The position numbers and the translations under genes were made by a program. From IMG/VR virus record IMGVR_UViG_3300045988_158900: a stretch of 64,000 bases of DNA; one strand, given 5' to 3'. A model generated the notes under the pieces. That model saw only the letters and a program-made list of their open reading frames with translations, was not told the DNA's origin and ran no database searches. This document shows, piece after piece, positions 20,648-64,000 of the stretch (the first letter of the stretch is position 1; every line of letters begins with the position of its first letter). This DNA is from a virus.

Positions 20648-23600
20648 TTAAAATACTTTAATCCATACACGCCCATTGACTTTGACTTTTCCAGTTCCCC
20701 ATTCTTCATAATCAGGGACAGCTGAAATAGTACCAATCGCGCAATAACCTTTATTTCTATATTCTTCATCAGTCATAATAGAAACTGTTCCATTAGGACC
20801 AGAACATACTGGACGCCCAATATTCTTTTTAAATTCTTCACGAGATTCATATGGATAAGCAAGAACACGTCCACTTACTGCTATTGGAGTTTTTGCCTAT
20901 TCAGTTTCACCAATAGCAAAACCAAATGTATCAGATGTAATATTTGCACCGGGCATCATGCGTTCAGTTGAAGTAATAAGAGTATCATTACCAACTTCAA
21001 TTACGCATCTACCTGATTCAACAGTATCGCCTTCACGGAATTCAGCATAGTCATTCCATACAGCACCCCAAAGTTTATTTCCTCGTAAAACTCCAGTTCG
21101 AGTATTAATAGTCACTGTCATGCCAGCATTAGTTGAAGGACATCCATCAACAAAACCAATACTCTACCAAGATTTAAAAATTAAATTGGCTTTTCCACTA
21201 GTCCCTAAAGTACTACCATCTGCATCTCCATTTCCAACATACATTCCATTATTTCCACCGACTAAGCTATGACAAATCATTGCTCCAGTATTAGTAGCAG
21301 TTGATGTAGTGGTGGGCAAAGAACAGTTAATACTTCCATTCATAGTTCCGCCAGATAATTTTAAATAATTGGTATCAATCTATAAACCATTTATATCTCC
21401 CAAAGTTTTAGTAGCACTATCAGCGTTACCATGAAAATAAACATTAGTACCATCACTTTGTACTAACCATATATTTTTAATACAATCCCATAGTCCATAT
21501 AACTACGCGCCGCCACCATCACGAGATAATTCGATATAACCAGTTGAACCATTATTTACTCGGAATCCATATCCAGCTTTATTAATGGCTAACTATCCAG
21601 TCATTGTATCGCCAGATTTTTTTACATAACTAGAATCATGATTATGAGAACTTGAAGCTGCTCCAATACTAGATGAAGTTATATTAATATTTTTAGCAGC
21701 ACTACCATTATAAGTAAATTGGTTTGTTCCTTCAGTAGTTCCATTATTTAGTTTAATGACTAAATTATTATTAACTTTATCGGCACTACTAGCTTTAGTA
21801 GCCATTGTTGCAGTAGTTGCAGTGGTCGCATTACCATTTAAATTACCATGAAATCCATCAGGCTTAATGGAAGCAACTAACTCTCCATCAGTCGCAGTTC
21901 CCTTAGTATTTCTATAGAAATTCCAAATTCCACCATATTCATGAAAATCAACTTGATTATGTCCACTATATCCAAAATCAATAGCATGATAATATGTATC
22001 AGCATTGCCTTCACCACGGAATTTTGCGCTTTGAAAATAATGAGTTTTATCAGTGCCTGTGGCGATATAAGGAGCAGTAAATAATCCAGTATTATCAATA
22101 GTAACTTTTGGATTATCTTTAATGACTTTACCTGTTGCATCAGCGAATGTGGAAACAGCATTTACAGTAGAAGCATTAGGTCCTGTTACCGCATTTGTGC
22201 CTGCATCATCACGCCAGCCAGGATTACCTTTTTCATCAGTTTTCCAAACTTTATTTTTTTGATTAGCTCCAGAAGCCACATAGCCTTCAGATGATGATGT
22301 ATTAGCTTTCCAAGTATTTGTATTAGTGGAGCTAATTGTGATATTACCGCTATCATCACTTACTACTGATGTTGCTTCAGTGCCTTTAATAGTAACGCTA
22401 TTTCTAACTGTAGTATTATCTACTATAGTTAATTTAGTATTACCATTAGTAGTAGCAGCATTTTGAGCAGTACCAGTGCCAGCATATAAGTAAGTTGTAT
22501 AATGTGTATCTGTAAATTTAGCATCTGAGGGCACTGATTTACCAATAGTAAATCCAGAGTCTTTAATTATTTTACCATTAGCCCCATTGAATATAGCAAC
22601 GTGATTATTAACCGCGCTAGCCGGTCCAATTACTGCGCCATCAATATTAGTTTGAACAATAGTCCAATCTCCTGCGCTATGAGTAGTTCCATCTTTAATA
22701 CAAATAATTAAATCGCCAATTTCACAAACTTCACCATTGCCAAGGTATTTACCATTATTACCACCTTTAATATCATAAACACGATAAGTTTCACCTGCGC
22801 TATGTTTGGCTGGCAATTCATGAATAGTGGCGGCAGCATCTCCACCAATAGTGCCTTTAAATACCATAGCATCGTTAGTGGCTAATAAATTATTTAATTT
22901 ATTATCAATATCTGATTTTATATAAAAATTATTTAATGACCAATCATGTACTGCATCACCACGCGCTGCGGCATATTGATACAAATGATTTCCATAATCT
23001 TTTCCTGCCTCGCCAGCTTGTAAAATTACATGTCGGCTAGCTTTATAAGAATTATCTCCATCGTAATTAATATATAAATTATCTTTTTCACAAGCTCCAT
23101 CATCTGTTGGAGTTGATACACCACAAATACCACGAGTTACTAAACCAGCATTTTGAGCATTTCCGCCAAATACTGCACCCTACTATAATGTAAGCTAATT
23201 AGAAATTATAGTATTTGTTTTATTAGTGCCAAGAATATTGGCAGGACTACCTTTAGAAATATTAGTACCGCCTACGGTGACTGGACCATTAAATGATGCG
23301 CTACCATTCATATTTAAAAGAATGTTATTATTTATATTTATACCCTAATTGTTTACTAATGAATCTTCACCAGTATTTATAATTTTAATACCAGTGCCTG
23401 CTCCTTTATTATCAATAATTAGAGCTGAGCCTTCATCATTATTTTCAATTAAAACTTCATCTTTACTTCCGGTTTCAACATTAGGGATTACTAATGTACC
23501 ATCTTTATAACCAATGCTACCATATTTTAATTCAATTAAATTTATAGCATTATCGATTACTTTAAATGCTAAAATGGGATAAGTTTCTGTGTCTTCAATT

Positions 23601-23809
23601 TTAGTAGCTTTAATCCAATCAGTACTTAAAGCATTAAGAGGGATACGATTATCTCCAATTACAGCTGGAGATGCATTAGTGCCATCACCATCAATATCAA
23701 TGTAAAATTTACCATCATCTGATGTAAAATATGCAAAACCTTCTTTTGCATATGGCACATTTGTCATTAAATTTTTTGACAAGCCCTTGCTTATTTTAAA
23801 CAATGCCAT
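20648..23809 (-). CDS. Tail fibre protein (~1053 codons) with at least 7 in-frame TAG, including a tandem TAG-TAG at 23180-23185
   Basis: RBS GAGAAGGGAG before ATG 23809. N-terminus KISKGL...[21 protein letters not shown] is the shared fibre N-domain. Track ORFs 20897, 21593 and 23345 plus the 22985-23344 segment are all one frame. I checked that no TAA/TGA lies in frame between 22985 and 23345. Ends TAA 20648-20650. Confidence 0.6.
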
Positions 23810-61900: not shown

Positions 61901-64000
61901 TACTACTTTGCACAATCTAAATATATTGACGCATTTTAGCCATACGTTTATCTGTACCAGTCTCATCCCAAGGTATTGATGCAATTTCTTTCTCTAAGCT
62001 TTGCAGTATTCCTAAATCCTAAATATTTTTAGGTAAATTTTCACGAAATAAATTAAAATAAGCTTCAGCTTTTGCTGTAGCTATTTCAAAATCTTGAGTA
62101 GGAATTGGATCTTTTATATTAACAACATTAGCATAATTTTCACTTGTTAAATTAGTTAATTTATCTAACTATGCTGTGACTTCAGTTGTCATTTCATTAA
62201 ACAAATTTGCTACTGGAGTAGTACCATCAGCTTTTAACCAAGCAGATAAGATATTATTTACAAGATTATCATTTAAGGTATCTATTTTATTATAATACCC
62301 TTCTAAATCACTGTATAATTGTTCATATTTTCGACCTAATAATGCATCCTTGGCATTTCCAGGATTATTATGGTAACTAGCCTAATCCCAAACTTCTTCC
62401 ATCTAATTATTATATGCTTTTGAAATACCTTTTTTGTCTCCTATCATGGTATCTTGAGCATTATTTATAATCTTTGTATAAGCGTCAATTTCTTGACCTA
62501 ATTTGATAAGCTAATCTCCCTACTACTGGATACCCTATTTTTCTGTCTCCCAAAATGATTTCTCAGCTGCCGTCATTCTTTCTGAAGCTATAGCTATTTT
62601 ATCTTTCATTTCAGAAACACGTTTAGAATTTAATAAACTCTATTTAGATTCTTCATCTAAATTATCACCTTTTTTAGATAAATAATTAGAAGTCTATTCA
62701 TTTATTTGAGCATGAATTTTAGCATAAGCTTTATCAGCTCCACCAACCAATATTTGAATATTACTAATAACATTTCGTAAAGCAGGCTCAATTTTTGAAG
62801 CTAAACTCTATTCAACAATAGTTAATATTCCTATTAATACTGGGTTAAGGCCTCCTATTTTATCAATAAATGAATCAACACCATCAACAGTGTCGGCTAA
62901 AAAATCAGTTAATTTAATAAAAAATTTATCATCAATTAAATCTTGATATAATCCCTAAAATGAAGCCTTCAAACGCTTATTAGCGGCTTCCCAAGACTCT
63001 TCATAAATTTTCTATTGCTCAGTTAATGTTCCAGTAGCATTACGAGCAGTTTCGAGATTTTCTTTCATGAAATCCCATTTATCCATCAATGCAATTAATT
63101 GAGTATATTGGCGGACACCAGCAACAGTTTGAGCTAATGCCACTTTAGCATCTTTAGAAATTAATGGATTTCCTTCAGCATCAAATGAATTCCATTTTTC
63201 GCCTAAATCATCAAGGATATCATCCATCTCTCGCAATCCGCCATCTGCTGTTTTAATAGAAACACCAACAGTTTCAAGAGCTTGAGAATATTTTCCTAAT
63301 GTAGTACCATCTTCAAGAGTTTTTCCCAATTCTAAATCTTGAATACGAGCAAATAATGTTTTAAATGCAGTACCAACCACATCAGCAGATTGACGAGTTG
63401 TAGCTGTTACAGTTGCTAAAGCAGAAGTAGCATATTCATAACTTAAACCTACTGTGTTAGACACAGCTGCGAATTTTTCTAATCCAGCTGCAATTTCATC
63501 TGTGCTTGATGCAGTGGCTGCGCCTAAAGCAGTCATAACATCAGCGTAATATTCTAATGATTGTGACCCATCATAGAAATTATTCCAAACAGCAGTTAAT
63601 TGCTAAGAAATTTTATCAGCACTTTCACCAGCGGCATTAGCCATTTTAATTGTAACAGCAGTTCTATCTTCTACTTCTTTATCAGATAAACCCTGTTGAT
63701 AGTAAATTAAAGAAGCATCAGTATAATTTAATGTAGAAGTACTTAATGCTTTTGCCGCTTTATTTGCTTTATCAGCAAATTTATCCATATAGTCAATATT
63801 ATGACCAGTAACAATTCGAATATCATTTAATGATCTGTTTAAATCCTAAGCATAACCATAAGCCCCTTGTAATGCTCCCATTACACTATGAATCATACTT
63901 GAAGAAATCTACCATTTAACTGTATTTTTAACAGTAGTTAAAAAATCCTATAAACGAGCATTTAAACTAATTATTGGCTAATCAGCCGCAGCTATGGACT
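55971..64000 (-). CDS. Tail tape measure protein, 3' portion (>2670 codons in window, continues beyond 64000), numerous in-frame TAG
   Basis: All eleven minus-strand track ORFs from 56439 to 63603 share one frame (mod 3 = 0). Coiled-coil, Ala/Glu/Lys-rich content. TP901-type TMP core block (...ALGAATASSTDEIAAGLEKFAAVSNTVGLSYEYATSALATVTATTRQSADVVGTAFKTLFARIQDLELG...). Ends TAA 55971-55973. Confidence 0.6.

Follow-up and report, generated by a model that had tools for sequence, protein, structure and literature searches.

Introduction

In phages with reassigned stop codons, recoded stops that mark structural and lysis genes have been put forward as a possible timer of late expression (Borges et al., bioRxiv 10.1101/2021.08.26.457843); in that preprint, replication genes are described as 'variably' recoded and lysis genes as preferentially recoded in crAss-like and Agate phages. 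Reassignment of TAG to glutamine (Gln) with a suppressor transfer RNA, tRNA-Sup(CTA), is described in a report on a related gut-phage group (Babkin et al. 2023, PMC10607447). The timing-device idea rests mostly on maps of recoded late genes, and the case presented here adds numbers. It concerns the use of TAG codons in IMG/VR virus record IMGVR_UViG_3300045988_158900, of which a stretch of 64,000 nucleotides (the window) was analysed. These 64 kb, with 29.8% GC, belong to the 157-kb genome of a tailed phage in which TAG stands for glutamine, and the first 12,287 bases of the window are 100% identical to ENA contig ERZ27256516 k119_242310 (157,306 bp; the source contig). A first-pass annotation, made from the letters alone, had described TAG as rare in early and common in late genes, and had proposed that late-gene expression, and so particle assembly and lysis timing, is conditional on a suppressor tRNA. 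The asymmetry is real; with a probability of roughly 0.55, it is mainly the result of purifying selection against TAG wherever read-through is limiting, with two superimposed constraints, one linked to the gene module and one to codon bias.

Distribution of TAG codons

The window is organised as two convergent gene blocks, which meet at 20223-20648. The plus-strand block (220..20223; 21 genes for replication, nucleotide metabolism and lysis) contains 22 TAG in 6,263 codons (3.5 per 1,000), whereas the minus-strand block, read from 63998 down to 20648 through tape-measure-like, then tail/baseplate and then fibre-like proteins, contains 194 in 14,134 (13.7 per 1,000). The early/late asymmetry noted in the first-pass annotation is thus upheld (Fisher p = 4e-13; 4.5e-13 in the test that used the first ATG of the first gene, with 21/6,201 in the plus block), TAG density per gene is not uniform over the window, and the TAG share of Gln codons differs in the same direction (0.10 in the plus block, 0.35 in the minus block, p = 5e-14).

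The single-gene counts were reproduced for the DnaB-like helicase (755..2287, plus strand; phrog_19, E = 2.7e-50) and the DNA primase (2463..3566, plus strand; phrog_47, E = 4e-36), which have no TAG in 510 and 367 codons, and for the DnaE/YorL-like polymerase (8873..12844, plus strand; 40% identity to SPbeta YorL), which has one in 1,323 codons. About 19 TAG had been given for 38900..42529; 19 were found in the 1,182 codons of 38900-42448 and none further to 42529. Fibre A (20648..23809, minus strand) has nine in 1,053 codons where at least seven had been seen, and the late gene at 25579..27513 (minus strand; phrog_25888) is indeed free of TAG in its 644 codons, 18 of which encode Gln. A giant fibre with about 18 TAG in about 2,647 codons is best matched by the fibre-like protein at 27838..36003 (minus strand), which has 16 in 2,721 codons (5.9 per 1,000).

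Early versus late is not the sole axis of TAG use. The step in TAG density lies at about 38.9 kb and not at the strand switch, with 5.8 per 1,000 codons in 20648-38788 and 19.3 in 38900-63998 (p = 1e-12), and the fibre genes of 20648-38788 do not differ in density from the replication block once DnaB, primase and DnaE are set aside (5.2 per 1,000; p = 0.78); the difference between blocks stands, whereas a simple early/late boundary does not. Expressed as a share of Gln codons, TAG falls into three tiers, 0.10 in the replication block, 0.22 in the fibres and 0.41 in 38900-63998. Both blocks are heterogeneous: DnaB, primase and DnaE together have one TAG in 2,200 codons vs 21 in 4,063 in the remaining replication-block genes (p = 0.0013), and density also varies among the late genes (chi-square p = 5e-5). 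The baseplate and tail proteins at 38900..55857 (minus strand; 1,182, 113, 936, 2,424 and 955 codons) carry 16-25 TAG per 1,000, and the richest genes are 42888-45698 (18/936; a phrog_1887 tail protein), 45695-52969 (42/2,424), 52990-55857 (24/955) and the tape-measure-like gene at 55971..63998 (minus strand; 55/2,675), the 5' end of which is lost at the window edge.

An origin of these differences in Gln content, strand bias or local base composition is hardly credible. The TAG-rich genes are the most AT-rich ones (25-30% GC), which would fit such an origin; however, off-frame TAG is alike in all blocks (15-30 per 1,000), so that neither base composition nor strand bias can account for the asymmetry. 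The TAG share of Gln codons moreover differs fourfold across the three tiers, and the AAG/AAA and GAG/GAA ratios are similar in all three.

Consecutive TAG codons had also been pointed out in fibre A. The tandem TAG TAG at 23180..23185 (minus strand; Gln-Gln) is in frame; the third TAG of the cluster (23195..23197, minus strand), said to follow three codons later, is in fact read before the tandem, from which three codons separate it. Two more tandems, at 62520-62525 and 56925-56930, lie in the tape-measure-like gene, which makes three among the 25 Gln-Gln dipeptides of the late block. As the number expected by chance is 25 x 0.35^2 = 3.1, the tandem was rejected as a special signal.

TAG is present in 11 of the 21 replication-block genes; it mostly lies well before the C-terminus, at positions where a stop would cost the product most of its length. 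Replication is therefore suppressor-dependent too, because these genes (DnaE, NrdD, RecJ and Dda among them) need TAG read-through. This bears on the principal alternative to selection against TAG, an adaptive gate in time (after Borges et al.), in which TAG is kept in late genes, assembly and lysis wait for the suppressor, and TAG-free genes act before the switch. Such a gate is possible but doubtful: the strong module asymmetry, which survives control for codon bias, speaks for it, as does the publication of the model for other clades, while the need for read-through in half of the replication block, DnaE included, is against it. Virion genes rich in TAG require a suppressor for their expression, and to that extent the proposed dependence of late genes stands; it does not set them apart, since replication depends on the suppressor as well, and it does not extend to the virion proteins that are likely the most abundant, which are TAG-free in close relatives.

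Codon reassignment

TAG is a sense codon for Gln (genetic code 15) in this genome. Stop-to-stop open reading frames (ORFs) of at least 150 amino acids (aa) cover 34.0 kb under the standard code, 37.0 kb with TGA as sense and 60.9 kb with TAG as sense, and the 35 called genes terminate in TAA (25) or TGA (10) and never in TAG, which partly follows from the gene calling. At the TAG sites of conserved replication proteins, the commonest residue in relatives is Q (261), followed by TAG (170). Codon 168 of the RecJ-like gene is Q in 44 loci and TAG in eight, NrdD codon 219 is Q in 36 and TAG in 16, NrdD codon 539 is Q in 38, and DnaE codon 937 (11681-11683) is Q in 31, R in 19 and TAG in none. Homologue alignments of all three proteins run on across the TAG sites; a DnaE split at 11681-11683 was accordingly ruled out, and the site is read through. 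As TAG is found at DnaE codon 937 in no relative, those of 98-99% identity included, it represents a very recent Gln-to-TAG change in an essential gene.

In the late block, the non-identical partners of TAG in the closest tape-measure orthologue are mainly CAA and CAG. At 23180-23185 the frame is continuous among relatives, with TAG GAA in L279 and L280 and TAG TAG kept in L283, where the third TAG is CAA (loci of the source contig and of relatives are designated by L and a number). Among all in-frame stops within orthologue alignments, 4,609 of 4,614 were TAG. The ORF-coverage test of the code discriminates poorly on replication-side loci, which have few TAG in their genes. Within the same phage family, L099 appears to be TGA-recoded (its ORF coverage is 0.69 with the standard code and 1.14 when TGA is sense) and L072, L081, L102 and L285 appear to use the standard code. 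Since standard, TAG-recoded and apparently TGA-recoded members coexist, the genetic code changed more than once among the relatives.

TAG usage in related genomes

Per-gene densities were obtained over 50-120 related loci, which are not phylogenetically independent and include a few with the standard code. Per 1,000 codons, TAG is rarest in the lysozyme-like protein (0.1; 66 loci), the major capsid protein and DnaE (0.2 each), the major tail protein (0.8), the capsid-associated protein and primase (0.9 each) and DnaB (1.6). It reaches 7.1 in the RecJ-like gene, 10.6 in TerL, 12.4 in the portal gene, 15.3 in L064:4260-5414 and 25.6 in L064:6039-6767. Upstream of the tape-measure gene of L064, a 98% identical relative, five genes have no TAG in 1,433 codons: a scaffold-like fragment, a 311-aa capsid-associated protein, the major capsid protein, a 195-aa protein (2775-3362) and the major tail protein. 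Capsid and tail genes were identified through tblastn matches to annotated Bacillus phage genes. The genes interleaved with these five carry 6-37 TAG per 1,000; further upstream, in L191, TerL has nine TAG, the portal gene eight and the protease-scaffold gene two. Particle assembly that is conditional on the suppressor, as first proposed, agrees with the TAG-rich virion genes and disagrees with those of the capsid, capsid-associated, 195-aa and major tail proteins, likely the most abundant virion proteins, which are TAG-free in L064 and have 0.2-0.9 TAG per 1,000 over more than 100 related loci. For the same reason the bulk of the particle would escape a gate acting through the suppressor.

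The giant fibre carries 5.1-6.2 TAG per 1,000 in every TAG-recoded relative examined, and none in 2,562 codons of the standard-code L285. Orthologues of 25579-27513 are syntenic and have 0-1 TAG at 99%, 93%, 92% and 68% identity; at the TAG share of the fibre block, the probability of finding none in this gene is 0.012. Because the densities of the giant fibre and of 25579-27513 hold across relatives, gene-specific constraint is favoured. Recent acquisition of 25579..27513, as had been suggested, is contradicted by this conservation and by its GC content and codon use, which are like those of its neighbours. The wider version of that idea, in which the TAG-poor genes in general (replication, fibres and 25579-27513) are newly acquired from standard-code phages, is very unlikely. 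Fibre A is a mosaic among close relatives and the family has standard-code members (L072, L081, L102, L285), both in keeping with such a history; yet relatives down to 68% identity or less retain both the order of the genes and the TAG density of each, the densities hold over the 50-120 loci, and the composition of 25579-27513 matches that of its neighbours.

Conserved densities would also be expected if the number of TAG per gene were a selected set-point, each TAG scaling the yield by a read-through below 1 and so fixing virion stoichiometry or assembly order from a single transcript. This is a tentative and rather improbable proposal; if it were true, the tape measure (55-64 TAG) would be made late and in few copies, the capsid and tail-tube proteins (0 TAG) in hundreds, and tuning would account for the TAG densities that are conserved in more than 100 relatives.

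Codon bias

Selection against TAG is also suggested by a second axis. In most of the genome A-ending codons are preferred for Lys, Glu and Gln, with an AAG fraction of about 0.1. The TAG-free capsid-associated, major capsid, 195-aa and major tail genes of L064 have AAG fractions of 0.40-0.95 (0.48-0.95 in the capsid and tail genes), and three of them use CAG more than CAA; the genes next to these four have 6-33 TAG per 1,000. Across 27 virion and packaging genes, TAG share and AAG fraction are negatively correlated (Spearman -0.63, p = 4e-4), and the four virion genes with an AAG fraction of at least 0.4 have 0 TAG among 37 Gln codons vs 246 of 700 (p = 3e-7). The same relation was found in 17 structural genes of phage phAss-1 (Spearman -0.78) and on the plus strand of the source contig. 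There, 69 genes were read, 27 of which carry TAG; the correlation, taken over 39 plus-strand genes, is -0.51 (p = 1e-3), and the 11 genes with an AAG fraction of at least 0.6 have 0 TAG among 113 Gln codons vs 50 of 463 (p = 2e-5). Among genes with an AAG fraction below 0.25, the TAG share is 0.118 on the plus strand vs 0.353 on the minus strand (p = 2e-17). Both axes, module and codon bias, are therefore real, because the module effect survives control for codon bias. In a limited search of the accessible recoded-phage literature, exclusion of TAG from strongly codon-biased genes was not found stated.

A minority of genes uses AAG, GAG and CAG nearly exclusively (L064:627-2686 and 6795-7871; L328:262-1791 and 5250-7739), the biased genes including those for the capsid, the major tail protein, a DUF2828 protein and an MVP-shoulder protein. 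The tRNA-Lys(CTT), tRNA-Glu(CTC) and tRNA-Gln(CTG) of phAss-1 would read exactly these three codons.

Lysis genes

Gating of lysis timing by the suppressor, the other consequence drawn in the first-pass annotation, is not apparent in the window. The holin (19810..20223, plus strand; phrog_13712, E = 6.7e-33), which is the last gene of the plus block, has no TAG among seven Gln codons, and the Phage_lysozyme2 protein (5903..6733, plus strand; PF18013, 59.6 bits at a cut-off of 28.2), with a signal-peptide-like N-terminus, has none among 12. The CHAP/PG_binding/Amidase_2 endolysin, which is encoded some 15 kb to the left of the window on the source contig (L322:4158-5996), has three TAG in 612 codons. 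All three genes lie on the replication strand, apart from the virion genes; endolysin and holin are about 35 kb from each other. The absence of TAG from the holin is not a fixed family property, because the gene carries TAG in 10 of 16 loci of more distant relatives. Preferential recoding of lysis genes, which is a feature of the timer model, is not seen here, and these near TAG-free genes count against a gate. Nor are code-change genes found directly upstream of a lysis cassette, the tRNA(CUA) of relatives belonging to an array well upstream of holin and endolysin.

Suppressor tRNA and promoters

No tRNA gene was detected in the window or at 35.8-138.3 kb (102 kb) of the source contig, and ARAGORN found no suppressor tRNA within about 10 kb of the DnaE, DnaB, tape-measure, capsid, AbrB-like and early exonuclease genes in more than 250 related loci; the loci of relatives that span the capsid, terminase and early regions gave no tRNA at all. 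The suppressor tRNA was reached by walking along the source contig via homologous proteins: two close relatives, L331 and L337 (a 198,183-bp contig), have a nine-gene tRNA array upstream of the DUF2828 gene, which holds a 74-nucleotide tRNA(CUA) at 2724-2797 on the strand of the replication genes. Over the adjoining 10.8 kb, L331 and the source contig share 95.6% identity; judged by where it lies in the relatives, the array would be expected at about 145 kb of the source contig, some 45 kb to the left of the first base of the window. The tRNA(CUA) is preceded by a perfect TTGACA-17-TATAAT promoter, which ends 84 nucleotides before it, and 8.2 kb of this strand contain four promoters of the kind; none occurs in the 64-kb window, where chance predicts 0.23. 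The suppressor tRNA implied by the original proposal can thus be placed behind a host-type promoter in two relatives, the window and the covered part of the source contig being without such a tRNA. The tRNA(CUA) pattern had no match in GTDB genomes, and its similarity to isoacceptor families gave no assignment. A homologue of the tRNA-adjoining gene led to another relative with 21 tRNAs, none of them with a CUA anticodon in that locus. No Pfam family of release factors or aminoacyl-tRNA synthetases was present among the called genes of L321, L322, L325, L328 and L331.

Beyond the right end of the window, the relative IMGVR_UViG_3300045988_140174 has a GC-rich region (L278:10300-20315, L286:1000-16800) with 40-52% GC in a 30% GC genome, which is 90-97% conserved among close relatives. 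This region is oriented away from the virion module; 13 kb of one strand contain 18 perfect TTGACA-N16-18-TATAAT promoters, and in relatives it encodes small, essentially TAG-free genes with AAG-biased codons. In its first 2.8 kb (L278:10300-13100), none of the codes gave a convincing ORF, and neither an Rfam match nor a tRNA was found. The region is presumably early (immediate-early), and the tRNA is likely to be expressed early from its host-type promoter. That the tRNA(CUA) belongs to the early/middle region and has a perfect host-type promoter in front of it argues for early-onset, graded suppression rather than a late switch. A gate is favoured by the TAG-free state of the presumed immediate-early region and by the phage origin of the suppressor tRNA in relatives, and disfavoured by the consensus promoter of the tRNA(CUA) and by the concentration of perfect promoters in this probably early region. 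A perfect sigma-70-type consensus was also seen 26 nucleotides upstream of the first virion-module gene in L191 (L191:2248-2276), from which an AbrB-like gene diverges. Late genes may not depend on a phage-specific promoter class; for a gate, a host-type promoter at this site would be favourable, as it would leave translation as the control point.

Further features were noted around these loci. Inside tRNA arrays, ARAGORN reported tRNA-like genes with two-base 'anticodons' (aa, ta; L331:590-660, L336:1593-1667), candidates for unusual tRNAs, pseudogenes or tRNA-like elements. A variable hotspot (L331:8570-9883, L334:6268-8701) separates the tRNA array from the DUF2828 gene; its restriction-modification/defence-type genes differ among relatives, with ICEA and an N6_N4 methylase in one relative and an EcoRI methylase and GmrSD/HNH in another. 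L286:18200-19400 has 25% GC and short repeated units; the contigs of two relatives (166 and 168 kb) end there, at what could be a terminus of the genome, an origin or simply a break in the assembly.

Proposed selection against TAG

Under the preferred explanation, purifying selection would act on TAG where read-through is limiting, either early, while the suppressor accumulates against host release factor 1 (RF1), or where translation demand is very high. The module constraint would be reflected in the plus-strand early, middle and replication genes, with about one third of the TAG share of minus-strand virion genes, and the codon-bias constraint in the lack of TAG, in both modules, from genes with a strong G-ending bias, which is the expected signature of heavy translation. 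Late genes would not owe their TAG to selection for a switch; suppression probably sets in early and increases, and genes with many TAG would be made later and at lower yield.

A mutational model is consistent with this explanation. If Gln codons change along CAA -> CAG -> TAG, with CAA -> TAA and TAG -> TAA yielding stops and equal AT bias in both transition pairs, TAG should roughly equal CAA at neutral equilibrium and CAG should be rare. For TAG/CAA, the counts give 0.73 for the tape-measure/baseplate genes, 0.30 for the fibres and 0.12 for the replication block, with CAG/CAA at 0.06-0.09 in all three. The TAG-rich genes (tape measure, baseplate, connectors, portal, terminase) would accordingly be near neutrality and the rest depleted, and a late-gene TAG share that is not above the neutral expectation is a further point against a gate. 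What the sequences show is the Gln meaning of TAG, the counts and correlations, the gene-specific conservation among relatives, and the tRNA with its promoter in relatives; the link to expression level, the neutral equilibrium and the timing of suppression are inferred from them.

Several observations weigh against selection of this kind. G-ending codon bias is a proxy for expression, and the biased genes are also GC-richer, which makes a shared compositional or historical cause possible. The neutral TAG/CAA ratio of about 1 comes from a self-built model with transitions only. A threefold module effect after control for bias is what a timing model predicts, and the consensus promoter before the virion module in L191, if it means early transcription, would give translational control more importance. 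The fibre genes are TAG-poor without strong codon bias, which the two constraints cover weakly, and the holin is TAG-free here, yet contains TAG in most of the 16 more distant loci. Finally, the suppressor tRNA was seen in relatives (95.6% identity over the adjoining 10.8 kb), the source contig being covered at 35.8-138.3 kb.

Genome properties

Relatives in IMG/VR and ENA reach 166-198 kb. Megablast of window positions 1-25000 against GenBank phages gave no match, and no GenBank phage is near at the nucleotide level; an exact 35-mer from the window had no match in IMG/VR. Pfam gave no match for most virion proteins of the window, and Rfam none in the window or in the GC-rich region of relatives. 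The lineage is abundant in public gut assemblies, in which code-15 gene calls are present, and needs code-15 gene calling.

Besides DnaB, primase, the Phage_lysozyme2 protein, DnaE and the holin, the plus-strand content of 220-20223 includes a RecJ-like exonuclease (4104..5849; phrog_2484, E = 9e-154) with five in-frame TAG (codons 29, 70, 168, 200 and 336), a Dda/PIF1-like helicase (7030..8226; phrog_325, E = 2e-84) with three, and the anaerobic ribonucleotide reductase NrdD (three TAG) with its activase NrdG (one TAG; phrog_626) at 13513..16256, as well as guanylate kinase, dUTPase and RuvC. One of the 21 genes of this block, at 19043-19495, lies on the minus strand and has one TAG.

On the minus strand, two further fibre-like proteins (36145..38788; 558 and 312 codons) have one TAG each, and the full-length tape-measure orthologue in L064 has 2,781 aa and 64 TAG. 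The N-terminus of 25579-27513 is a paralogue of 24941-25549, which is also phrog_25888. The length and content of fibre A vary among close relatives, in which its body is swapped for other sequences, and it looks like a receptor-binding cassette; fibre A (20648-21100) and the adjacent 288-aa protein (23944-24400) resemble each other in a C-terminal domain of about 150 aa (...GRVLAYPYE...WIKV).

Comparison with known phages

The SPbeta-like siphoviruses of Bacillota (SPbeta, phi3T) share with the window lineage the DnaE polymerase (40% to YorL), a YorF-family protein, a giant tape measure and a large genome with opposed modules. They differ in being temperate and in using the standard code, and the similarity is a distant one between proteins, with no nucleotide match.

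Also comparable is phAss-1, of the proposed Phassvirus (PMC10607447; GenBank OQ749652), a tailed phage of the human gut with a very long tape measure and TAG read as Gln, as here; its tRNA-Sup(CTA) genes are on the strand of the replication genes, as in the relatives of the window. A recount of phAss-1 reproduced the gene-by-gene pattern, with 34.9 TAG per 1,000 codons in the tape measure and none in the major capsid, scaffold, major tail, amidase, DnaE and NrdD genes. The major capsid protein is 50% identical to that of the window lineage, with no nucleotide similarity by megablast. In phAss-1, in contrast, the tape-measure gene is upstream of the head genes, the genome measures 136 kb vs 157-198 kb here, and two of the three suppressor tRNAs are directly upstream of nrdD, a site that is empty in the window. 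Nucleotide identity of about 80% and synteny with phAss-1, which would place the window in the genus Phassvirus, were not found; the window belongs to a separate lineage within or near the broader phAss-1 group.

With the code-15 crAss-like, Lak, Jade, Sapphire, Garnet and other clades (Borges et al.; Yutin et al. 2021, PMC7886860; Peters et al. 2022, PMC9523058), of which Jade or Sapphire would be compatible in genome size, the lineage shares TAG as Gln, enrichment of TAG in virion genes, an AT-rich genome, a phage tRNA(CUA) (here in relatives) and a mixture of standard, TAG and apparent TGA codes within one family. It differs from them in its TAG-free holin and lysozyme-like gene, its TAG-poor endolysin and the lack of a release factor or aminoacyl-tRNA synthetase in the parts examined. 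Virion enrichment of TAG has already been described for recoded phages, and the refinement suggested by the present comparison would be a graded, expression-linked avoidance of TAG: the highest-copy virion proteins (capsid and tail tube) escape the asymmetry and half of the replication genes do not. If this pattern were general, recoding in these clades would act as a graded translation penalty, with TAG removed where it is costly, and not as a clean switch.

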